Shown here: positions 159 to 42,569 of the stretch, one piece after another | Position numbering within the stretch: position 1 is the stretch's first letter | How the letters are laid out: each line of letters begins with the position of its first letter | Assembly: GCA_963659655.1 (NCBI GenBank) | Contig: CAVKVE010000001.1 | Span: 48,337-90,905 of the forward strand | Length of the DNA: 42,569 nucleotides | From: Bacteroidaceae bacterium | Lineage (GTDB): Bacteria > Bacteroidota > Bacteroidia > Bacteroidales > Paludibacteraceae | Direction: 5' to 3' | The notes under the pieces: generated by a model | The model's input: only the letters and a program-made list of their open reading frames with translations | The model's database searches: none | What the model was told of the DNA's origin: nothing | Made by a program: the position numbers and the translations under genes

Positions 159-230
159 TTTCCTATGCCGCAAGCGGCAAGAAAAAAGGAATGAAAATAG
201 AATTTCGTTTTCCTCTATTTTTCGGGAGCG
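159..230. repeat. Dispersed intergenic sequence blocks, copy 1 (block A 168-192, block B 209-224)
   Basis: CCGCAAGCGGCAAGAAAAAAGGAAT (168-192) and TTTCCTCTATTTTTCG (209-224) recur almost exactly at 38007-38030 and 37962-37977, in the opposite order. Confidence 0.8.
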
Positions 231-23919: not shown

Positions 23920-26900
23920 CTATTTCACCTTTGTGCCGAGTACATTGTATATATGCCCGTTGTAGAGAATATATACCTGCCCGTTGCGGAGAACCTTGCG
24001 AGGCTGAGCCATCGTGCCGTCTTGTACGCTCTCCATGTCCGTCTTTTTTGGGTCTCTTACCAAGCGTACAGAGCATCCCCCGCTTCGGATACTTTCGCCC
24101 GAACAATTTACATCCGACTCCGTAAAATGTATGAGGTGTATGCGTTCGGCACTCCCATCCACCGAGATTCCGCAATGGTAACAGCCGATATTCGTCAGGG
24201 TTGTACCTATACGATAGCCTCCTACCGGCAAGAACACCGCTCCGTTTGCTTCCATCAGTGCCCAATCGGCTACCGTGAATGTATTTTCGGTGTAGGTGGT
24301 TGCAGCGGTGTTGTAGGTAATCGATTCCGGCTTATTCCATGTATCGGGCAGGATAACCACTCCGCTAACGCCCACAACAGTGGCGTGGAAATAGAGTGTT
24401 TCCGCATTCTCACGCTTGAAGAACAGGTAGTCCCATTCCGAAAGGGTCGGAGTACGCCATTTGTTCTTGTCCCCGTCTATCTCGTTCGTTCCCCAATCGA
24501 GGAAATCGCCCTGATAGTCCTCTTGATTCTTAGAAGTGCTGATACCCCACGGAGCCACTGCATCTTCGCCGCTCCAGCCGAATAGGTCAATCGTATGGTT
24601 CAGTATCGTGGTCGTGCCTACCGTTTTCACATTGTCCGAACCGATTATATCGAATTGGTTTTCAGCGAACTTCCATACCGAGTGGTCGGTGCATTGCAAG
24701 TTTCCTTGCGAGAAGAACACAGTGCGAGTGCTTGATACTGAGATCGGATACGCATCGTAGCGGCAAGGCAACAAGAATAGTGCCGAGATGGCCACATCGC
24801 TGTTTGGCATCACAAATTGATATGCGCCGTCTTCCGTTTGGGTGACAGCCACCTCGCTTGTCGCAGCCCCCGTTCCTTTCGTTACATGAATCGATTTGAG
24901 GTAGTAGTTTCCATCCGCCTCAGCCGTTATGGTGATTACCTCTCCCGGCATAGCCGTCGTGGCAGAAGCCGAGAGCGTACCACCCTCCGCGGTGCCGAGC
25001 GTAATGGTGTGCGATGCCACATCTTGCACCAAGCGAACAGCCATTCCAATGTAACTATCATCAAAACTTACGCCAATAGTAGATTGAGTGGCAGCAATAT
25101 AAAAGGATGTTACCCCACCTTTTTTGGCTGTTGATGACCAATAGAATCCACCTATATCCAATATGGTAGATGCGCCTGCTCGAGCGGCGGAGGCAGGAAG
25201 GAACACCGCTCCTGCGGCCTCCATCTGCGCCCACTGCGCAAGCGTGTAGGTGTTCACGGTGTAGTCCACCGACACCATCTTGCCTGCTGCGGTAAACGAA
25301 ATACCCTCCGGCGTGGTCCAATCGTCCGGCAGCAGCACGGCTCCGGTCGTACCATTGACCGTGGCAGGTCCATAGAGATCGGTAGCGTTCTCACGCGTCT
25401 TGAGCAGATAGTCCCATTCCAGATAGGCAGGAGTACGCCATGTATTGGCTGCGTCTTTGCCTATCGGATTCGTTCCCCAATCGGTAAATGTGGCATAATC
25501 TGTAGTGGTCGTACTTACTTTGGTAGGAGCATTGCCTGTTCCCCACCCAAATAGGTCTATTTTGTCGGCCAATCCCGAACCACTCCCGAAGGTAGACAGG
25601 TTTTTCGTGCCTAATGTGTCGTATTGATACGCTGCAAACTCCCACGATTTCGTGCTTTGGGTGTATTGCAAGTTGCCTTGAGCGAATACGATCTGCTTGC
25701 CTGCCGCCACGGTAAATGGGTGCATCACATACTGTTGCGGGTAGGCGAACACTGCCGACACCGTCACATTGCCCTGCGGTATGCTGAATCGATAGGTATT
25801 CTCATCCACTTGCGTGAAGATCACCTCCTCTGTCCCGCAGAGGATGCTCAATGAGCGGAGCAAGTACCCCTCATCGGGTGTCGCCGTAATAGTAACCACA
25901 TCCTGATACTGTCCCCTCTGCGTATCAGCTGTAAGCGTACCGTTTTCCGGAGTAGTCACTGTAATGCTGTATAGCGCCACATCCTCCACCAAGCGGACAT
26001 TCCGAGCCAAGTAAGCCGTCGTACCATTGCGTAACATCAACATTTCATCGGTAAAGGATACGGCTATCGGGGCGGATGCCTCAGCCGTCCAATAGCTTCC
26101 GCCCTGTGTCGTTTCCATCGCCGTACCATTGCGCCAGCCGCCCATAGGCAGGAACACCGCGCCTGCGGCTTCCATCTCGTCCCATTGAGCGAGGGTGTAG
26201 GTATTATGCGATGAGTTGTCTTTATTCGCATTCTCGGCGATGGTGGCAGATTTCCATGTCAGTCCGTTCTCGCTGCTTGGGTTGAACACAAGCCCCTGCG
26301 GCAGTTGCCATTGGTCGGGCAGCAGAATCAGTCCTTTCACTCCATCGACCGTACCGAAACCAAAGAGCTTGTCTGCATTGGAACGGGTACGCACGATATA
26401 GGTCCACTCCGCCTGCGTCAGGGTGCGCCAAGTGTCTGCCGCATCCCCGCCTATCTTATTCTTGCCCCAGTCCGCAAAGGTTCCCGAGTAGTCTGCATCG
26501 GTCGTCGAGGTACTCACGCCATACTGTGCCGTGGCGGTGCTACCGCTCCAGCCGAACAGGTCTATCTCTTCTGCCAGTTCCAATGTGCCGGCGTACGGGT
26601 GCGTCATGATGTTGTTTGCCCCTATCGTGTCGTATTGGTTGTTGGCGAAACTCCATACATTTTTGTATGGTTCATAATGCAGGTTACCTTTGGAGAAGCG
26701 CACCGCCTTGTCTGCTGCAACAGAGATGAGTTGCGGCGCATAGTGGCCGTCGCGTACAAATACGGCGGAGATAGTAACTATCGCGTCAGGCATAGTGAAC
26801 TGATATTGATTGTCCGTGCCTGCCACGGGCGTTACCAATACGCTCGCCTGCACGCCCACTACTCCTTTCTTGACCACAACCGTCTTCAGCGAATAGCCTG

Positions 26901-28602
26901 CGTCGGCATTGGCGGTAACGACAATCGTTGTCCCCGGCTCTGCGGGTGTGGTATCTGCGCTTATCGTACCGTTCTCGGTCTGTTGAACGGTTACCGTATA
27001 GGTCGATACATCTTGTGCCAATCGCACAGGGAGTGCAAAGTATCGATATGTCGAGGTGGTTGTAGAAAGGGTCTTCGTAGATGCTTTCCACCATACCGAA
27101 TAGACCGAATTATTGCCTGTGACCTCTGTGCTCGTACGATACCATAAGCCTGTCTTGACGGTGCTACCATCCCTCCAGCCTGCAGCAGGGAGGAATACAG
27201 CCCCGTTCTTTTCCATATCTGTCCATTGCGCATCGGTATAGACATTGACCGTATAGTCGCCGAGGGTATCCACTAATGTGAGTCCTGCCGGTGCCACCCA
27301 CTCATCGGGCAGTACCACCAATCCCTTCGTTGTGCCTACCATCGCAAAGCCGCATAGTTTCTTTGCATTAGGACGATTTTTAAGCAAGAATTTCCACTCA
27401 GCGGAAGACAGCGTCCGATAGGTGCCGGCCGCATAACTCTCGATAGTATTCTGCCCGTAGTCCAACAACGCAGTCAGGCCATAATCCGATTCCTCCTGCG
27501 ATAGCGAGACACCGTATGATACCGTCGAGCCCGTTCCGCTCCAGCCGAACAGGTCGATAGCGTTTTGATTGAGAATCTGCGTTCCCGTGGCGTCAGTCGT
27601 CACATTTGCTTCCCCGATATAGTCCGTCTGTTTCGATGCAAAATACCACTCGTTGGTACTGATGCTGTGCATCAGGTTTCCTGCCGAGAAAAGCACCTGT
27701 TTGCCCGATGTGTTAATGGTTATCGGCTTGGCAACATATTCCCGTGGCATCTCATAGTCTTTCACCAAACGAACCGCATTACCTCGACTCAATGGTGACG
27801 CCGTACCATAAGGGTAGCATGTATATTTGTTTATATACACAAACAAATGGTTGGACGTCGTTAGATATTTCGCCCAATAGCCCGCTTTGTCCAAATCGGT
27901 AACTGCAGTCCCGGTTCTCCATCCCGTCGTAGGCAAAAATACAGCCCCAGCAGCCTCCATAGTTTGCCACTGCGTTGCGGTATATACATTGTCCGTATAA
28001 TGGTTCTCCTTGTTCTCATCCTCGTAGCCATATCCCCATGGCGCTCCAAGTGTCGAACTCGGCGTAAAAGCAGCCCCTGCGGGCAGCACCCAGTCGTTAG
28101 GCAGGATGATGATTCCTGTGACATCGTTCACGGTGGCAAAAGCGAACAGCGATGCCGCATTGGCTCGTTGCCCCAACAGATATTGCCACTCCGGACAGGT
28201 CAGAGAATACCATGTATTGGCTTTGTCCGCACCTATCACATTGTTTCCCCAATCCACAAATACATCATTGTAATCATTCGCATCCGTCGAGGTACTGATA
28301 CCCCAAGCAGCCGGAGCGTAGGTGCTGTAGCCGAACAGGTCAATTTTGTCGGCAAGCACGGTGTTGCCCGTTGCGTCGGTGGTCACATTTGCCTCGCCGA
28401 GCACCTCCCATTGGTTGGCAGCGAACGCCCATGTATAGGTTCCGCTCTGTACGCCGGAGCATTGCAGGTTTCCCGGCGAAAAGACAACTTGCTTAGTGGC
28501 AGCCACCGAGAACGGGTGGGGCGAATAAGCAGACGGAGTTTGTGCCGTTGCACTTAGCAGCACGCATAGCATTACCGTAAGTAGAGAAATTAGCTTTTTC
28601 AT
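23920..28602 (-). CDS. 1560-aa secreted modular surface protein: 5 lectin-like (DUF1566/FISUMP-like) modules plus 3 beta-sandwich spacer domains
   Basis: Signal peptide MKKLISLLTVMLCVLLSATAQ. The block F(S/A)xGNLQ...W(A/S/E/K)FAxNQ...IDLFGW...DWG.N.I...WRT(L/P)...EW.YL...GAVFLPxxGxR...VRLVxD occurs five times. Y(T/S)(V/I)TV...G(T)(I/L)(S/T)A(D/S)...(V/I)(S/T)(I/V)SA(V/L)F domains occur three times. Confidence 0.85.
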   Translation of the reverse strand: MKKLISLLTVMLCVLLSATAQTPSAYSPHPFSVAATKQVVFSPGNLQCSGVQSGTYTWAFAANQWEVLGEANVTTDATGNTVLADKIDLFGYSTYAPAAWGISTSTDANDYNDVFVDWGNNVIGADKANTWYSLTCPEWQYLLGQRANAASLFAFATVNDVTGIIILPNDWVLPAGAAFTPSSTLGAPWGYGYEDENKENHYTDNVYTATQWQTMEAAGAVFLPTTGWRTGTAVTDLDKAGYWAKYLTTSNHLFVYINKYTCYPYGTASPLSRGNAVRLVKDYEMPREYVAKPITINTSGKQVLFSAGNLMHSISTNEWYFASKQTDYIGEANVTTDATGTQILNQNAIDLFGWSGTGSTVSYGVSLSQEESDYGLTALLDYGQNTIESYAAGTYRTLSSAEWKFLLKNRPNAKKLCGFAMVGTTKGLVVLPDEWVAPAGLTLVDTLGDYTVNVYTDAQWTDMEKNGAVFLPAAGWRDGSTVKTGLWYRTSTEVTGNNSVYSVWWKASTKTLSTTTSTYRYFALPVRLAQDVSTYTVTVQQTENGTISADTTPAEPGTTIVVTANADAGYSLKTVVVKKGVVGVQASVLVTPVAGTDNQYQFTMPDAIVTISAVFVRDGHYAPQLISVAADKAVRFSKGNLHYEPYKNVWSFANNQYDTIGANNIMTHPYAGTLELAEEIDLFGWSGSTATAQYGVSTSTTDADYSGTFADWGKNKIGGDAADTWRTLTQAEWTYIVRTRSNADKLFGFGTVDGVKGLILLPDQWQLPQGLVFNPSSENGLTWKSATIAENANKDNSSHNTYTLAQWDEMEAAGAVFLPMGGWRNGTAMETTQGGSYWTAEASAPIAVSFTDEMLMLRNGTTAYLARNVRLVEDVALYSITVTTPENGTLTADTQRGQYQDVVTITATPDEGYLLRSLSILCGTEEVIFTQVDENTYRFSIPQGNVTVSAVFAYPQQYVMHPFTVAAGKQIVFAQGNLQYTQSTKSWEFAAYQYDTLGTKNLSTFGSGSGLADKIDLFGWGTGNAPTKVSTTTTDYATFTDWGTNPIGKDAANTWRTPAYLEWDYLLKTRENATDLYGPATVNGTTGAVLLPDDWTTPEGISFTAAGKMVSVDYTVNTYTLAQWAQMEAAGAVFLPASAARAGASTILDIGGFYWSSTAKKGGVTSFYIAATQSTIGVSFDDSYIGMAVRLVQDVASHTITLGTAEGGTLSASATTAMPGEVITITAEADGNYYLKSIHVTKGTGAATSEVAVTQTEDGAYQFVMPNSDVAISALFLLPCRYDAYPISVSSTRTVFFSQGNLQCTDHSVWKFAENQFDIIGSDNVKTVGTTTILNHTIDLFGWSGEDAVAPWGISTSKNQEDYQGDFLDWGTNEIDGDKNKWRTPTLSEWDYLFFKRENAETLYFHATVVGVSGVVILPDTWNKPESITYNTAATTYTENTFTVADWALMEANGAVFLPVGGYRIGTTLTNIGCYHCGISVDGSAERIHLIHFTESDVNCSGESIRSGGCSVRLVRDPKKTDMESVQDGTMAQPRKVLRNGQVYILYNGHIYNVLGTKVK

Positions 28603-37821: not shown

Positions 37822-37961
37822 AGTTGTGTTGAATTTTGTTGTGTGTAATTTTATAATGTGTGATTATTACTGTTGCGATAAATCACTGCCGTGTAGTTGT
37901 AAATAGTTGATATTTATGTTCTTATAAGTATTCTTTGATTTTTTCGATTTGAAATGAATGC

Positions 37962-38030
37962 TTTCCTCTATTTTTCGTGAGCATTGCGAGCAGGATGTCT
38001 CATATTCCGCAAGCGGCAAGAAAAAGGAAT
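37962..38030. repeat. Dispersed intergenic sequence blocks, copy 2 (block B 37962-37977, block A 38007-38030)
   Basis: TTTCCTCTATTTTTCG and CCGCAAGCGGCAAGAAAAAGGAAT match 209-224 and 168-192. Confidence 0.8.
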
Positions 38031-38096
38031 AATTGCCAACAGCGTTCGGAAAAAGACGGTGCAAAGGTAGTGGGTTTGCGCAATACGGTGAGTGGT

Positions 38097-38160
38097 TTTG
38101 ACCGGTTCTGAGCGGCTTCGGCATGATTTGAGGGTATTTGACCGATTCTGACACACTTCG
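38097..38160. repeat. Two 24-bp direct repeats spaced 40 bp start to start
   Basis: TTTGACCGGTTCTGAGCGGCTTCG (38097-38120) and TTTGACCGATTCTGACACACTTCG (38137-38160) are identical at 19 of 24 positions. Confidence 0.8.
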
Positions 38161-38242
38161 AGAAGTTCGGAAGAAGGCGTGAGGAAAAAGGATTACACTT
38201 AGAGCATTAAAAGACACAAATTTTCCGGGCGGGATTTGGTGG

Positions 38243-38286
38243 GTAGGTGACCCGTAGGTGACTCGTAGGTGACTCGTAGGTGACCC
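38243..38286. repeat. 4 x 11-bp perfect-phase tandem array GTAGGTGACYC
   Basis: GTAGGTGACCC GTAGGTGACTC GTAGGTGACTC GTAGGTGACCC. Confidence 0.95.
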
Positions 38287-38371
38287 GTGTGGGGAACGAG
38301 GGGAGAAAAGACTATGTATTTTAGCAATACTCGGTTTTCGTAGGCCATATATGATAAAGTTGGTTAATTGT

Positions 38372-38380
38372 GGGGGGGGG
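38372..38380. repeat. G9 homopolymer just upstream of the predicted FHA-operon promoter
   Basis: TGGGGGGGGGT read directly. It ends 25 nt before the TAACTTTG box. Confidence 0.9.
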
Positions 38381-38405
38381 TATTTATAAATACAAATTTA
38401 AGTTG

Positions 38406-38413
38406 TAACTTTG
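38406..38413 (+). promoter_or_regulatory. Candidate -7 box (TAnnTTTG) for the FHA/kinase operon
   Basis: TAACTTTG lies 79 nt upstream of the ATG at 38492, with AT-rich sequence at the expected -33 position. Confidence 0.4.
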
Positions 38414-38491
38414 TAGCGATTAATTTTTTCGCCATAAAAGGTTACTCTTATAGCCATTGAGGACATAAGCTAAAAAAACAGATAAAAACCT

Positions 38492-39088
38492 ATGCGTTGT
38501 ACAGGATGCGGTTGGGAAAATCCCGACACCAACACCAAATGTGAGAAATGCGGGGCAAGCCTGCAGAGTGAAAACCGGAACTATGCCAATGCCCCTGCGG
38601 CAGGCAGTCCGCTAAACAAGACCCGTATCGAGGCGGAAGTATTCCCCGACCTTGCGGCTCCGCAGCCGGTAGCCCCCACTTGCCGTGAGGAAGAGCCTGC
38701 CTCTCCCGTTACTCCTACGCCCCACGCCGTGCATCAAGCGGCTCCTGCGGGCGGCTATCAGGGGACAGTCAATCCGTGGATACAGGTTGCGCCCAAGAGC
38801 CAATGCACACTGACCCCTATTCAGCAGGACACCGATGAGGCTGCGCCGAAAGCCATTTCCTTCAAGGGCGAGCAGCACATCCTCAATCGTGCCAATTTGG
38901 ACGAGGAGAACTACACCATTACCTCCAAGGTGCAAGCCGAACTTACTTGCGAGGACGGCGTATGGTATATTCAGGACGGCAGCCAACAGCAAACCACTTT
39001 TGTCCATGCGGGCAACAAGACCCCTCTCAAAGACGGCGATGTCGTGCTGATGGGCAACCGCCAATTCTTGTTCCATACCGATAAGTAG
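38492..39088 (+). CDS. Zinc-ribbon protein with a Pro/Thr-rich linker and a divergent C-terminal FHA domain
   Basis: N-terminus is MRCTGCGWENPDTNTKCEKCG (2 x CxxC). The C-terminus is GEQHILNRANLD...ITSKVQAEL...WYIQDGSQQQTTFV...LKDGDVVLMGNRQFLF. This follows FHA topology with non-canonical residues at some positions. Confidence 0.65.
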   Translation: MRCTGCGWENPDTNTKCEKCGASLQSENRNYANAPAAGSPLNKTRIEAEVFPDLAAPQPVAPTCREEEPASPVTPTPHAVHQAAPAGGYQGTVNPWIQVAPKSQCTLTPIQQDTDEAAPKAISFKGEQHILNRANLDEENYTITSKVQAELTCEDGVWYIQDGSQQQTTFVHAGNKTPLKDGDVVLMGNRQFLFHTDK

Positions 39089-39092
39089 TGCC

Positions 39093-40385
39093 ATGATAGC
39101 CAATCGATGTGATTATCGTGTAGGCGACAGCATCGGGCATTACCGTGTGCAGAAACAGCTCGGCGAGGGCGCATTCGGCATTGTATATAAGGTGTCGGAC
39201 CTCTCGTCGGGCAGTCCTCTTGCGCTCAAGTTGCTCAAACTATGGTCTATGGAGCCCGAACTGCGTGACCAACTCTCGCAGCGTTTCGACATGGAGTACG
39301 AGACCAGCCGTATCGATAGCCCCTATCTTGTTCATTCGGTGGGCAAAGGCATTACGGAGGGCAACCCCTATATAGTTATGGAGTTCTGCAACGGCGGCGA
39401 CCTCACTTCCGCTCCCCGCAATACCGATTGGACGCTTGTCGCGCGCCAAGTGCTGTTGGGGCTGCGTGCGCTGCACCGACACGGCAAGGTGCATCGCGAT
39501 CTCAAGCCGGAGAATGTCCTGCGCCGAGCCGATGGCACCGCCGTCCTGACTGATTTCGGTATCTCGGGCGACCGCAACCGGCGGCAGACCAAGATGGATG
39601 TACTCGGACGCCCCATGCAGGGCTTTGGCACCTACGCCTATATGCCGCCCGAGCAACTGCAGCTCAAGCGGGGCGAAGCCACCGTGTTGCCCACGACCGA
39701 TATTTTCTCGTTCGGCGTCATGATGTACCAACTGCTGACAGGCAAACTGCCCTTCGGGACGCTCGACAGCGAAGCCGATTTAGTTCTCTATATCAAACGG
39801 GCAAGCGAAGGCGATTGGAATCGCAGTCTGCTCTCGCTCTCTGCGCAGGGGACGACCTTTCTGCCTATCATTGATGGCTGCCTGCGCCCCGACTACAAGC
39901 AACGGTTGCAGTCGGTCGACGAGGTGCTTGCTTTGCTTCCTGCCACAGGCAACCCAATAGCCTCGGATTCCGATGCCGATTTTGGGGCATTTCTCGAAGC
40001 ATTCCAGAACGAACTCGCTATTTCGGGCTATCGTTTGCGTATCATGCAGGGCGAGGAATACGGCAAAACCTACGATCTCCCCGCTCGGCAATCCTGTACG
40101 CTCACGATGGGGCGCAAGAACAGCACCGTGCAGAACACACTCCCTATCGTGGAAGAGCAGAGCACTTACATCTCCCGCCGCCATTGCACGCTCCGCTACG
40201 ACGCTGCCTCCAACCTTTGGCAGATATACGACGGGCAGCAGGACGCCACCGCCTCCAACGGATGGCGGTATTCGCTCAACGGCACTTTTGTCAATTCCAC
40301 CGAGGTCGGTCCCTTTGGCTATTGGCTGCGTGTGGGCGATATCATCTCTATCGGCGATACCAAACTCCGTGTTGAGGCGTATTGA
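39093..40385 (+). CDS. Hanks-type Ser/Thr protein kinase with a C-terminal FHA domain
   Basis: GEGAFGIVYK (G-loop), ALKLLK (Lys), HRDLKPENVL, TDFGIS (DFG) and YMPPEQ. The C-terminal FHA is LTMGRKNS...YISRRHCTLRYD...SLNGTFVNS...VGDIISIGDTKLRV. The gene starts 4 nt after the previous stop. Confidence 0.9.
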   Translation: MIANRCDYRVGDSIGHYRVQKQLGEGAFGIVYKVSDLSSGSPLALKLLKLWSMEPELRDQLSQRFDMEYETSRIDSPYLVHSVGKGITEGNPYIVMEFCNGGDLTSAPRNTDWTLVARQVLLGLRALHRHGKVHRDLKPENVLRRADGTAVLTDFGISGDRNRRQTKMDVLGRPMQGFGTYAYMPPEQLQLKRGEATVLPTTDIFSFGVMMYQLLTGKLPFGTLDSEADLVLYIKRASEGDWNRSLLSLSAQGTTFLPIIDGCLRPDYKQRLQSVDEVLALLPATGNPIASDSDADFGAFLEAFQNELAISGYRLRIMQGEEYGKTYDLPARQSCTLTMGRKNSTVQNTLPIVEEQSTYISRRHCTLRYDAASNLWQIYDGQQDATASNGWRYSLNGTFVNSTEVGPFGYWLRVGDIISIGDTKLRVEAY

Positions 40386-40466
40386 TGCCCGCAGCACCAT
40401 AACCTACCCCTGCTAAAAACAACAGAAAAACAATATACAAATTCAATCTCAAAAAACCAACCCAAT

Positions 40467-41111
40467 ATGAATGCAATTACAGTCGGGCGCAGCCCCGAAA
40501 ACACCATTGTTGTCAGTCCAAACTACACCACCGTTAGCGGACGCCATCTGACCATTACACAAGCCAACGGGCAACTCTACTTGCAAGACCACAGCACCAA
40601 CGGCACCTACATCAATGGGCAATTTGTCCATAACAATCAACAGATTGCCATCACTCCATACGACACCATCACGCTCGGGCGGGAATACCACCTCGATATG
40701 TCAGCCGTCGTGCGTGCATTGCAACCCACTGCCGGCGGCGGGCGAGAAACAATGCTTCGTCAGCCCCAAGAACCGAGGTATGTGGATCCTCCATTCACAC
40801 CGCAGCCCGCAGAAACGCCGCACCGTGCCGAGCCCAAGAACTTGAATTCCTTCAACTGGGGTGCATTTTGGCTCAATTGGCTATGGGCAGTTTGCCACAG
40901 TGTATGGTGGGGATTGCTTGGTTTCATCCCAATTGTCGGCATCATTATTCCCTTCGTGTTGGGATTCAAAGGCAACCGTGCTGCTTGGGAAAAGTTCAGT
41001 GGCACGGCTGAGGAATTCGAGCGTAAGCAAGCAGCATGGAGTAAATGGGGGTGGATTATATTCGTAGTTTCATTGGTTCTCTATATTATAGTTACTTTGG
41101 CAGATATATAA
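40467..41111 (+). CDS. FHA-domain protein with a C-terminal multi-pass membrane anchor
   Basis: ITVGRSPENTIVV...VSGRHLTI...LQDHSTNGTYINGQ (canonical FHA). A Pro-rich linker follows, then hydrophobic spans FNWGAFWLNWLWAVCHSVWWGLLGFIPIVGIIIPFVLGF and WGWIIFVVSLVLYIIVTL. Confidence 0.85.
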   Translation: MNAITVGRSPENTIVVSPNYTTVSGRHLTITQANGQLYLQDHSTNGTYINGQFVHNNQQIAITPYDTITLGREYHLDMSAVVRALQPTAGGGRETMLRQPQEPRYVDPPFTPQPAETPHRAEPKNLNSFNWGAFWLNWLWAVCHSVWWGLLGFIPIVGIIIPFVLGFKGNRAAWEKFSGTAEEFERKQAAWSKWGWIIFVVSLVLYIIVTLADI

Positions 41112-41124
41112 AACCCACCCAACT

Positions 41125-42569
41125 ATGGCACAAACCAACTACAAGCGCACACTGACGGGGTCAGTCGGCGCAGGATTAGGATCTGTATTCTCCGCTAACG
41201 GCAAGAGTTACTACATCTTGGAGCATAAGGTGTCCTCCAAGTACCACCACGCAGGCGAGGCACAAGAGATTATCGTCGATGAGGCAGAACTCGGGCGTGA
41301 CGCCAAATGCCAAGTGCAGTTCGACGAGTCGTTCACTACGGTCAGCCGTCGCCATGCGGCGATTGTGCGTGACGGCGAGAACTGGAAACTCGTGCAATTG
41401 AGCCAAACCAACAAGACTTTCCTCAACGGACACCCCGTCACCTCGGAGTGGTACTTGCAGAACGGCGATGAGATACAACTCTCCGTCAATGGTCCCAAAC
41501 TCGGCTTTATCATTCCACAGGGGGCAAAAGCCAAGACGGGCAGTATTGCGCTCTCTCGCCGCTTGAGCCTATTCCGCCAGCAGGCACTCCGCCCGTACAA
41601 GGCCGCCATGACGGCTATGGCGGTCGTCATCGTGCTGCTGATAGGCGGCGGCACGGGTGTCGGTATTTGGCTCGGCAAGGAAAACGCCAAACTCAAAGAG
41701 GGTGCGGCGCTTACCCAAACGCAAATCAACGAGGCGCAACTGGCACTCGCCGAGGCACAAGCCAAGCAGGCAGATTTGAGCCGCGAACTGAATAAGACCA
41801 AACGCGACCTCACCAAAGCCATACAATCTCTGCCTCAGCAGACCACCGATCCGGAAGCAGTCCCGAAAGTGAATGCTGTTTCCACGACGGGCAACGCCGC
41901 TCTCGACGCCGTGCTGCCTTACATCTACTTTGTCTATATCCGTAAAGTGGAACTCTCCTTCGAGGGGCAAACCAAGACGATAGAGGGTTTAGGCTCCGGC
42001 ACAGGTTTCCTCTTGAGCGACGGCCGCTTTGTTACGGCCCGTCATGTGATAGAGCCGTGGATGTTCCCGTCGGGCGATGACGATACGCAGAACATTGCCA
42101 TCAACGCCATTGCCCACAGTGGCGGCACGGTTAAGTGCTATATTGATGCCTATTCGCCTACGGGCAAGCAACTGCATTTCGTTTCGACCAATGCCAAGAC
42201 CGACCGTTCTTCCGATAAACGCTATGCGTTGGACGGTGGGGCGACTATCGCCATTCCGCAGGAACTCTCTGCCGACTGGGCATCGTTCCGTACGAGCGAG
42301 CAGGGTGGGTTGGCATTCCACAACGCTTTGAGCCGAGAACTGAAGATGACCACCGAACTGCAAGTCTTGGGCTATCCGTTGGGTCTTGGAGCGAACTCGC
42401 CCACCGACATCAGTCCTATCTTTGCGACGGCGCAAGTGGCGAAACAGGGATTGGAGCATGGCATGATTGCCACCACCAATTCGGGCTACGAGCATGGCAA
42501 CAGCGGTGGACCCGTCTTCGCCACTACCACAGACGGCAAACTATTGGTAGTCGGATTGGTTTCTTCCGG
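41125..42569 (+). CDS. FHA - TM - coiled coil - trypsin-like (S1/S1C-type) serine protease; 3' end outside the window
   Basis: Not in the ORF track because no stop falls inside the window. My own translation from ATG 41125 gives MAQTNYKRTL...AELGRDAKCQV...VSRRHAAIVRD...SQTNKTFLNGHPV (FHA). Then TM AAMTAMAVVIVLLIGGGTGVGIWLG, then coiled coil INEAQLALAEAQAKQADLSRELNKTKRDL. The protease part has GSGTGFLLSDGRFVTARHV (His), ADWASF (Asp) and GYEHGNSGGPVF (Ser). Confidence 0.85.
   Translation, partial: MAQTNYKRTLTGSVGAGLGSVFSANGKSYYILEHKVSSKYHHAGEAQEIIVDEAELGRDAKCQVQFDESFTTVSRRHAAIVRDGENWKLVQLSQTNKTFLNGHPVTSEWYLQNGDEIQLSVNGPKLGFIIPQGAKAKTGSIALSRRLSLFRQQALRPYKAAMTAMAVVIVLLIGGGTGVGIWLGKENAKLKEGAALTQTQINEAQLALAEAQAKQADLSRELNKTKRDLTKAIQSLPQQTTDPEAVPKVNAVSTTGNAALDAVLPYIYFVYIRKVELSFEGQTKTIEGLGSGTGFLLSDGRFVTARHVIEPWMFPSGDDDTQNIAINAIAHSGGTVKCYIDAYSPTGKQLHFVSTNAKTDRSSDKRYALDGGATIAIPQELSADWASFRTSEQGGLAFHNALSRELKMTTELQVLGYPLGLGANSPTDISPIFATAQVAKQGLEHGMIATTNSGYEHGNSGGPVFATTTDGKLLVVGLVSS

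Follow-up and report, generated by a model that had tools for sequence, protein, structure and literature searches.

A conserved Bacteroidales gene cluster linking FHA-domain proteins and Hanks-type kinases to a predicted membrane-spanning, HtrA-like protease

Results

Organization of the FHA-domain genes

We analyzed a 42,569-nt stretch of contig CAVKVE010000001.1 from a Bacteroidaceae bacterium (the window, meaning this whole stretch), the 3′ end of which carries four consecutive + strand open reading frames (ORFs), g1, g2, g3, and g4. They encode a Zn-ribbon-FHA protein, a Hanks-type Ser/Thr kinase with a C-terminal FHA domain, an FHA-membrane anchor protein, and a protein in which an FHA domain is connected through a transmembrane (TM) segment and a long helix to an HtrA-like serine protease (Table 1). 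The ORF coordinates and the intergenic gaps of 4, 81, and 13 nt agreed with those of the first-pass annotation of this DNA, which had been made from the sequence alone, and its FHA, Zn-ribbon, Hanks kinase, membrane-anchor, TM, and trypsin-fold assignments were borne out by Pfam, hhalign, hydropathy analysis, and Foldseek. All four products matched FHA (PF00498) above the Pfam gathering score of 20.7 bits (23.3 for g1, 41.0 for g2, 58.7 for g3, and 59.2 for g4). A simple scan detected no terminator-like sites on the + strand inside g1-g4. The window cuts g4 16 codons short of its stop codon; the full 497 residues were read from L001, a 5.3-kb sister contig that is 99.3% identical to the window across 37889-42569 (labels of this form denote the contigs or loci compared). 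The four adjacent FHA genes do not represent a chance arrangement; the same arrangement recurs in dozens of species-level genomes.

Table 1. Features of the FHA gene cluster in the window and in related loci
Feature	Position	Strand	Basis or remark
Tentative promoter region: G9 poly-G (38372-38380), then TAACTTTG (38406-38413)	38372..38413	+	read from sequence
g1, Zn ribbon-linker-divergent FHA, 198 aa, soluble	38492..39088	+	ORF, Pfam, profile comparison
g1 Zn ribbon (CxxC...CxxC), aa 3-24	38498..38563	+	Zn_Ribbon_1, E 5.5e-6
g1 Thr44 codon, candidate phospho-acceptor	38621..38623	+	invariant Thr in alignment of 30 relatives
g1 Thr92 codon (GTVNPW motif), candidate phospho-acceptor and FHA ligand	38765..38767	+	invariant Thr in alignment
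g1 divergent FHA, ~aa 126-190	38867..39061	+	Pfam, PDB profile match, hhalign
g2, soluble Hanks-type Ser/Thr kinase with C-terminal FHA, 430 aa	39093..40385	+	Pkinase E 2.5e-39, FHA E 2.7e-10
g2 kinase domain, aa 17-273	39141..39911	+	Pfam and alignment
g2 FHA, aa 338-421, with insertion (DGQW...W)	40104..40355	+	Pfam, alignment, and hhalign
g3, FHA-variable linker-membrane anchor, 214 aa, accessory	40467..41111	+	FHA aa 4-71, E 7.8e-16
g4, FHA-TM-long helix-HtrA-like serine protease	41125..42569	+	cut after codon 481 of 497
g4 N-terminal extension, aa 1-45	41125..41259	+	66% mean pairwise identity; modeled disordered
g4 FHA, aa 56-119	41290..41481	+	Pfam; 79% mean pairwise identity, 79 relatives
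g4 TM segment, ~aa 160-182	41602..41670	+	hydropathy
g4 predicted periplasmic long helix/coiled-coil spacer, aa 183-235	41671..41829	+	19% identity, variable length
g4 chymotrypsin-fold protease, aa 266-481 seen in window	41920..42567	+	Trypsin_2 E 4e-9; triad H307/D384/S460
MotA/ExbB loci	L038, L045-L047, L049, L050, L062, L063, L074, L080, L088 (e.g., L047:9255-9992, L050:515-1411)		
ATCTCTT-N3-AAGAGAT sites	L038:3717-3903, L047:6057-6256, L056:508-697, L060:1862-2370 (four sites), L068:7623-7819, L076:7675-7864, L079:1778-1964, L052:2-16		

Conservation and distribution of the cluster

Comparison with related contigs indicated that g1-g4 are the 5′ part of a conserved cluster of 7 to 14 genes, and not the four-gene operon that had first been proposed. 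In L001, a gene for a signal-peptide protein starts 28 nt after the g4 stop codon; this fifth gene of the window's lineage (c14) had no Pfam match. The same four genes open the cluster of L004, the protease of which is 96% identical to g4, and are followed there by a c14-type secreted protein, a 445-aa PP2C phosphatase, a 479-aa kinase, and a BACON/TPR-like secreted protein. The continuation in L007/L008, from a Paludibacteraceae metagenome-assembled genome (MAG), comprises genes for a PP2C and a kinase, for two BACON proteins and one small secreted protein, and for a TPR protein, a third kinase, and a protein with DUF6585. Both the PP2C and the additional kinases are laid out as catalytic domain, TM segment, and ectodomain of 110-170 aa.

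A pattern scan of 185,579 species genomes, one genome per species, identified 176 with a g4 relative, and the best 80 of the 176 were analyzed. Co-occurrence was counted by ORF clustering in loci whose sequence extends ≥3.5 kb to the side in question, and the counts were repeated by six-frame hidden Markov model searches. The g1-type Zn-ribbon-FHA gene was located 5′ of the protease gene on the same strand in 69/69 loci, and the same was true of the g2-type kinase with a C-terminal FHA domain (69/69). On the 3′ side, a PP2C gene was present within four genes of the protease in all 66 loci, which bears out the earlier suggestion that a phosphatase might follow beyond the window end, and a further non-FHA, receptor-type kinase was encoded in 58 of the 66. 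On the basis of these frequencies, the invariant core consists of the Zn-ribbon-FHA, kinase-FHA, FHA-protease, and PP2C genes; identical gene order was seen in additional metagenome contigs. The g3 family is found in about half of the related loci and its position varies, sometimes after the PP2C gene beside a 1,220-aa kinase, so that the first-pass statement that every protein has an FHA domain holds for the first four genes in the window's clade and fails for the cluster as a whole.

Searches with g4 returned 2410 relatives at E<1e-5, with FHA and Trypsin_2 together in all of the best 120, and an exhaustive profile search at E≤1e-30 yielded 405 clusters (50% identity), nearly all of ~500 aa and matched end to end. 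The relatives come from MAGs only, with no cultured host among two homolog searches and the genome scan. Most belong to the Bacteroidales (Paludibacteraceae, Muribaculaceae/Sangeribacter, Prevotellaceae, Bacteroidaceae, Rikenellaceae, Tannerellaceae, and termite-gut symbionts), with a few from other Bacteroidota, such as Lentimicrobiaceae and lake MAGs; the habitats of the cluster-bearing MAGs include gut, rumen, and termite gut. Records L009, L010, L011, L018, L057, and L079 are titled Azospirillum sp. CAG:239, Firmicutes bacterium CAG:95, Acutalibacteraceae, or Clostridia, and these off-lineage titles for a Bacteroidales-type cluster probably reflect mislabeled or contaminated bins. The first-pass annotation knew of no characterized system with this architecture, and full-text literature searches likewise found no description of the cluster or of an FHA-HtrA fusion acting across a membrane, a result that is not proof of novelty.

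Properties of the encoded proteins

The g4 product matched Trypsin_2 at 37.8 bits (cut-off 27.6), and its catalytic triad is invariant, with H307, D384 (within D-W-A, where HtrA has D-I-A), and S460 (GNSGGP). Foldseek comparison of the protease domain retrieved the catalytic domains of HtrA1/2/3, DegP, and DegS with E values from 6e-9 (HtrA1) to 8e-7; no PDZ domain was detected in the full-length protein. The FHA domain retains the invariant residues G57-R58, S74-R75-x-H77, and N96-x-T98. Because five basic residues (R146/R147/R152/R156/K159) precede the TM segment, the protein is predicted to adopt an N-in, C-out orientation, with a cytoplasmic FHA domain and a periplasmic protease. An AlphaFold2 (AF2) model built from 29 sequences contains a protease domain with a predicted local distance difference test (pLDDT) score of ~90 and a continuous helix (residues 156-235) that combines the TM segment and stalk. 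Together, the orientation and the helix are consistent with the first-pass proposal that the catalytic domain lies on the far side of the membrane from the FHA domain. Mean pairwise identity among the 79 g4 relatives was 72% in the juxtamembrane region, 33% in the TM segment, and 47% in the protease (see Table 1 for the N-terminal extension, FHA domain, and stalk). As identity in the FHA and juxtamembrane regions far exceeds that in the protease and stalk, the strongest constraint on g4 lies on its cytoplasmic side, a pattern that would fit if its cytoplasmic partner is conserved and its periplasmic target evolves faster. The N-terminal extension has invariant residues of its own (Y6, K7, S13, G15, G17, S20, Y29, and LEHK32-35) and is a candidate docking or phospho-acceptor segment.

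The g2 product has all Hanks-kinase (PF00069) motifs intact. Invariant in 21 relatives are G24xG26xxG29, K46, H134-R135-D136, N141, and D154-F155-G156, along with the APE-like P185-P186-E187 and the activation-loop residues T166 and T180; judged by its catalytic residues, g2 is predicted to be an active kinase. Its FHA domain is canonical, with invariant G340-R341, S361-R362-x-H364, and N396-G397-T398, and hhalign matched the g2 C terminus to an FHA profile derived from the g3 and g4 families with 98.8% probability (E 8.7e-17). Hydropathy analysis detected no TM segment in g2 or g1.

The FHA domain of g1 is more divergent, with a Pfam match that is partial (aa 145-188, 23.3 bits versus the cut-off of 20.7). 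Profile comparison of the g1 family (30 members) against PDB identified ArnA (5a8i, E 9e-12) and the Rv1747 FHA domain (E 1.6e-5), and hhalign of the family with the g3+g4 FHA profile gave 96.2% probability (E 2.4e-9). Arg133 and Ser145, which contact phosphate, are retained; the usual His is Gln148 and the NGT motif is replaced by TT. Nearly all other members of the g1 family carry a second Zn ribbon (CPxCGYP...CPNC) that is deleted in the window's lineage. Two threonines of g1, T44 (K-T) and T92 (G-T-V-N-P-W), are invariant in 30 sequences and lie inside an otherwise variable linker.

The family of g3 has invariant phosphothreonine (pThr)-contacting residues (Gly-Arg, Ser-x-x-His, and Asn-Gly) in its FHA domain, followed by a semi-conserved R-x-T (T95 in ~15/21 sequences). 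The C terminus of g3 has two or three hydrophobic segments (aa 139-157 and 196-214 by hydropathy). These anchors have been swapped between loci and are mutually nonhomologous; as judged from the related loci, g3 is an accessory component of the cluster. The Pro/Thr-rich tracts PVTPTPH and FTPQPAETPH, previously offered as phospho-acceptors, fall in unconserved linker columns and gave way to g1 T44/T92 and g3 T95 as the conserved candidates.

Accessory genes and upstream regions

A Pfam survey of ~60 related loci showed that the accessory genes are overwhelmingly of envelope or sensor types. The extra kinases have FGE-sulfatase-like, BACON, TPR, or Lcl_C ectodomains, and other genes encode signal-peptide TPR and Sel1 proteins, YbjN-like proteins, and small secreted proteins of no known family. 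Some BACON proteins (c6) possess a C-terminal region ending in Phe that, by sequence judgment, resembles an outer-membrane β-barrel. The secreted protein c5 is encoded after the protease in 31/66 loci; it was considered as a degenerate protease or a known fold and rejected as either (hhalign against the protease domain, 2.7% probability; no PDB or Pfam match). In ~10 loci a MotA_ExbB protein (E 1e-14) is encoded between the kinase and the protease in place of g3, together with a partner (weak ZorB match) composed of a TM helix containing an Asp, a long coiled coil, and a C-terminal domain, and this pair hints at a component driven by the proton motive force. Five loci have SIR2_2 genes situated between genes of the cluster (L010:15145-16017, L016:12470-13330, L018, L029, and L031), TIR_2-TM-Cys-rich proteins occur at the distal end of two (L023:21232-21972 and L025:20118-20861), and AbiGi-like genes are present in two (L010:19251-19853 and L016:13607-14278); these genes may either serve the system as effectors or be passengers of defense islands. 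In L075 (8861-11344), 3′ of the cluster, we observed a TssR-like protein (TssR_VWA, E 3.9e-19; TssR N-terminal barrel, E 4.7e-8), the sole type VI secretion system (T6SS)-related gene in ~87 neighborhoods.

The L004 and L009 clusters have 88.5% nucleotide identity to that of the window, and homology to them begins only at 38485, 7 nt before the g1 ATG (L004:7321, L009:7318), so the region 5′ of 38485 is specific to the window's lineage. Eight other loci have palindromic 15-17-nt site pairs (ATCTCTT-N3-AAGAGAT), 156-180 nt apart, directly 5′ of the Zn-ribbon-FHA gene (Table 1), and in L047, L060, L076, and L079 a tyrosine-integrase-like gene is positioned just upstream. By sequence, these pairs look like a Bacteroidales invertible promoter, i.e., phase variation. 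No such site was present in the window at ≤2 mismatches, and contigs L091-L096, which were compared as strains, have nonhomologous upstream regions without the palindromic sites.

PADLOC-DB v2 gave no system match, only generic kinase (mad6, PD-T4-6), SIR2, and MotA matches plus a weak RT-Protease match, and neither g1 nor g3 matched any of its entries; NCBIfam MAD6 scored 126 bits versus a cut-off of 460. An origin in phage was rejected as a scan of 2.9 million viral contigs detected no relative.

Comparison with characterized systems

By its parts list, the cluster is most like the actinobacterial FHA/PstP/PknB operon and the threonine-phosphorylation front end of T6SS, but it departs from both in their defining features. 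The Mycobacterium tuberculosis cluster Rv0020c-Rv0014c (fhaA-fhaB-pstP-rodA-pbpA-pknA-pknB) similarly brings together soluble and membrane-anchored FHA proteins, a PP2C-TM-ectodomain phosphatase, and receptor-type Hanks kinases; the membrane-anchored PP2C and kinase of our cluster were found in relatives beyond the window end (66/66 and 58/66). The logic would also be alike, namely a pThr-dependent membrane assembly that acts on the envelope. In contrast, RodA, penicillin-binding protein (PBP), and PASTA components are absent here, the output is an FHA-fused, predicted periplasmic HtrA-like protease, and one kinase has its own FHA domain; furthermore, Rv0020c-Rv0014c is a universal syntenic operon, whereas the present cluster is patchy and mobile-looking. 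The TagH/Fha1-PpkA-PppA pathway of Pseudomonas aeruginosa T6SS, with TagQRST, likewise uses a receptor kinase, a PP2C, an FHA adaptor, and periplasmic/outer-membrane accessories as an envelope-sensing front end. However, TssB/C, Hcp, VgrG, and TssK were absent from the 38 kb upstream and from the commonest accessory families of the ~60 loci, VI_FHA/TagH (TIGR03354) scored at best 48.2 bits versus a cut-off of 120.25, and the kinases have no vWA ectodomain. Unlike the TerY-P triad, the cluster has no vWA (TerY) protein among its conserved or common accessory genes. The first-pass view that T6SS core, RodA/PBP, and vWA/TerY partners are missing thus held for the 38 kb upstream and for the related neighborhoods, and no T6SS, division, or TerY locus was found around the co-localized homologs.

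The KKP module of Pf prophages comprises PfkA (kinase-CSD), PfkB (kinase-FHA), and the PP2C PfpC, in which the kinases are the toxin and PP2C is the antitoxin, and it has anti-phage activity; the kinase-CSD (PfkA) may define KKP (PMC11341870). The g2 product has the PfkB architecture, a Hanks kinase with a C-terminal FHA domain, and is genetically tied to a PP2C. Yet the gene orders and the Pfam survey revealed no CSD-kinase, the gene order differs, the PP2C is membrane-anchored, and, in contrast to the prophage-borne KKP, our cluster is not in viral contigs and has many extra envelope components. Compared with Zorya, the window lacks ZorA-D, and the ~10 relatives with MotA_ExbB plus the weakly ZorB-like protein have no ZorC/ZorD.

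Individual proteins also have known counterparts. ArnA, the Zn-finger-FHA regulator of the Sulfolobus acidocaldarius archaellum network (5a8i), acts in a kinase/phosphatase network and shares with g1 a Zn ribbon, a low-complexity linker, and a C-terminal FHA domain; it is the best PDB match of the g1 family. It differs in being archaeal with a vWA partner (ArnB) and an archaellum regulon, as opposed to a bacterial host without a vWA partner, and the g1 FHA domain has Gln for the usual His and no NG motif. Cyanobacterial FraH is probably similar to g1 as well. The protease of g4 has the chymotrypsin-like fold and His/Asp/Ser triad of HtrA/DegP/DegS and is predicted to be anchored in the inner membrane facing the periplasm like DegS and MarP, but it has no PDZ domain, its regulatory module would be a cytoplasmic FHA domain in place of a periplasmic PDZ/peptide sensor, and it has a long helical stalk. 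The order of cytoplasmic FHA, single TM, and extracytoplasmic domain is that of YscD/PrgH of the type III secretion system (T3SS) and EssC/EccC of the type VII secretion system (T7SS); unlike in these proteins, canonical pThr-binding residues are kept here, Yop-YscD_cpl remains below its cut-off, and secretion-system genes are absent.

Discussion

The cluster belongs to Hanks kinase/PP2C/FHA signaling; its output is unusual, as is the high FHA content of its core. Our preferred reading, to which we assign roughly even odds (a probability of about 0.5), is that it encodes a membrane-associated envelope signaling complex that is assembled by pThr/FHA interactions, has periplasmic proteolysis as its output, and is reset by PP2C. 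What comes directly from the analysis is the inventory of components, their intact catalytic and pThr-binding residues, the topology as predicted, and the strict co-occurrence of the genes. In the mechanism that we propose, the receptor kinases would sense extracytoplasmic cues and, along with g2, would phosphorylate g2 T166/T180, g1 T44/T92, and g3 T95. Binding of these pThr residues by the FHA modules of g1, g2, and g4 (and of g3 where present) would lead the complex to assemble or cluster on the inner membrane. There, g1 would act as the soluble adaptor, g3 as an optional extra membrane-tethered FHA docking subunit, and g4 as the single-pass protein with its FHA domain in the cytoplasm and its HtrA-like protease in the periplasm on a long helical stalk. 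HtrA-type proteases function as oligomers, and clustering or a conformational change of the FHA-protease could switch periplasmic proteolysis on or off. The candidate substrates are the secreted proteins whose genes directly follow that of the protease, or the kinase and phosphatase ectodomains, and the membrane-anchored PP2C would erase the pThr marks and reset the system.

Several points weigh against this reading. The information flow, the substrates, and the biological role are what we infer from the parts, as are Thr phosphorylation, FHA-pThr binding between the components, and phosphorylation-dependent regulation of the protease; the conserved threonines are candidate sites. The g1 FHA domain retains only part of the pThr-contacting set, with the His and Asn missing. 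The AF2 model of g4 has pLDDT values of <50 at residues 1-76 and of 46-64 over the FHA strands, and because of this low confidence the g4 FHA call rests on profiles. Both g3 and g4 match Yop-YscD_cpl just below the Pfam cut-off (32.3 and 28.5 versus 33.2 bits), and the FHA domains of YscD/PrgH- and EssC-type proteins are reported to be structural modules, not pThr readers. The secreted neighbors c5 and c14 have no detectable homology. The cluster is patchy (176/185,579 species genomes by pattern scan), and its flanks are unrelated, with galactokinase/AAA/AbiEii genes in L004/L009 and a CoA-transferase gene in the window. The L010 locus is a mosaic that lacks g3 and in which the protease is 86.5% identical and the g1-g2 region 68.7% identical. 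The flank and mosaic pattern suggests horizontal exchange and recombination of the cluster, and the patchiness, mosaicism, unrelated flanks, and SIR2, TIR, or AbiGi-like genes of some loci suit a conflict system better than housekeeping signaling.

An anti-phage or inter-bacterial defense system is accordingly the main alternative and one to be taken seriously, although we consider it doubtful. Receptor kinases and periplasmic/outer-membrane sensors would detect an envelope breach, the kinase-FHA and PP2C proteins would form a phosphorylation toxin/antitoxin switch (as in KKP or Stk2-type systems), and the periplasmic protease, with NADase-type effectors (SIR2, TIR) in some lineages, would bring about growth arrest or envelope remodeling. 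Beyond its patchy, MAG-only distribution, its unrelated flanks (the operons are 88.5% identical, and homology sets in 7 nt ahead of the g1 start codon), and the L010 mosaic, the cluster has a highly variable distal part with paralogous kinases of differing ectodomains, which is as expected for defense. The same holds for the embedded SIR2_2 (five loci) and AbiGi-like (L010, L016) genes, the distal TIR_2 genes (L023, L025), the MotA/ExbB and ZorB-like TM proteins of ~10 loci, the upstream integrase and inverton-like sites of several loci, the PfkB architecture of g2 shared with the KKP defense/toxin-antitoxin module, and the AbiEii gene near the L004 cluster. Set against these features, PADLOC system models were unmatched beyond the generic kinase, SIR2, and MotA proteins, 0 of 2.9 million viral contigs carry the cluster, and the window flank is plain housekeeping DNA (MutS, FabF, pyruvate kinase, CoA-transferase). 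NADase-type genes occur in only ~8/~60 loci and for this reason may be passengers, the conservation of the cytoplasmic core (FHA, 79%) is unlike that of arms-race components, and the accessory genes mostly encode secreted repeat proteins, not nucleases or typical effectors.

Two further readings keep the parts and change the purpose. In the first of these, which we regard as unlikely, the cluster is a Bacteroidales counterpart of the FhaA/FhaB-PstP-PknA/PknB growth/division module in which the protease replaces the RodA/PbpA output and could process peptidoglycan hydrolases, as MarP does RipA. The parts run parallel (g3 to FhaB/FipA, g1 to FhaA, PP2C-TM-ectodomain to PstP, and kinase-TM-ectodomain to PknB), and the nearest NCBIfam matches include FhaB_Rv0019c for the g3 and g4 FHA domains and, weakly, MarP_fam for the protease. 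These matches are nonetheless far below their cut-offs (FhaB_Rv0019c, 43 versus 125 bits; PknB_PASTA_kin, 119.7 versus 450; MarP, E 0.0047), the window and related neighborhoods contain no RodA/FtsW, PBP, or PASTA, and such a module should be near-universal in the order and syntenic, whereas the cluster is patchy with unrelated flanks. Still more improbable is a trans-envelope machine for secretion, surface assembly, or motility, with the FHA-TM proteins as ring or stalk parts (as YscD/PrgH or EssC), a MotA/ExbB-type stator as the energy source in some lineages, and the kinases and phosphatase as mere regulators. This idea draws on the sub-threshold Yop-YscD_cpl matches of g3 and g4, the long periplasmic helix of the g4 AF2 model, the MotA_ExbB and TM-Asp coiled-coil proteins between kinase and protease in ~10 loci, the BACON proteins with a probable C-terminal outer-membrane β-barrel (c6, by sequence) and many signal-peptide proteins, and the TssR-like vWA protein in L075. 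The conserved core, however, includes no ATPase, secretin, pilin, T6SS or type IX secretion system core, or other known machine part, the MotA/ExbB pair and putative outer-membrane barrels are accessory, and invariance of the catalytic triad speaks for g4 as an enzyme and not just a scaffold.

A bolder version of the pThr/FHA-assembled signaling complex is possible, if speculative. It might be a previously unrecognized envelope-spanning, pThr-gated machine found mainly in uncultured Bacteroidales, in which an array of receptor kinases would respond, through exchangeable ectodomains, to surface cues or an attack on the envelope and FHA assembly would fire the periplasmic protease and, in some lineages, NADase effectors, to serve as a new anti-phage/anti-competitor immunity or surface-switching system.

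Bacteroidales are the dominant Gram-negative order of the gut. To our knowledge, work on Hanks kinases, PP2C phosphatases, and FHA adaptors has been extensive in Actinobacteria, Firmicutes, and proteobacterial T6SS, and these proteins are almost unexplored in Bacteroidales. In g4, a pThr reader is joined to a protease, by prediction across the inner membrane, a coupling that we did not find described in the literature. If the proposed mechanism holds, regulated periplasmic proteolysis would be a new type of output of bacterial Ser/Thr signaling; the pThr-gated machine would be the first case of cytoplasmic Ser/Thr phosphorylation directly gating a periplasmic protease, and the conflict system would be a new multigene immunity system in major gut commensals. 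Concrete residues are available for testing: g2 K46; g1 T44 and T92; and g4 R58, S74, and S460.

Additional features of the window

The 38 kb 5′ of the cluster are ordinary chromosome, mostly on the opposite strand, with genes for MutS, U32 peptidase, FabF, pyruvate kinase, a Na+/H+ exchanger, RmuC, a sulfatase, Bac_transf, Sua5, and an acetyl-CoA hydrolase/transferase. A large surface-type protein of 1,559 aa with three Flg_new_2 (divergent InlB B-repeat) domains is encoded at 23920-28602 on the − strand and is unrelated to the cluster. The 1.3-kb spacer 5′ of g1 yielded no RNA element other than a chance microRNA match (E 0.96). The contig breaks of the sister assembly GCA_963630965.1 fall in this spacer, which also contains four tandem copies of the 11-nt unit GTAGGTGACYC (38243-38297).

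The sequence TAACTTTG in the tentative promoter region is similar to the Bacteroidetes -7 box TAnnTTTG and is a putative promoter element. The nine-base poly-G lies ~26-34 nt 5′ of it and is two bases shorter in the otherwise identical L001 copy, a difference due either to slipped-strand variation or to homopolymer assembly error. Finally, a 38-40-nt sequence 5′ of mutS (window 159-198) recurs inverted with 97% identity at L004:7222-7260 and L009:7222-7259, ~60 nt 5′ of the Zn-ribbon-FHA genes of those loci, and could be regulatory or, alternatively, a short dispersed repeat.

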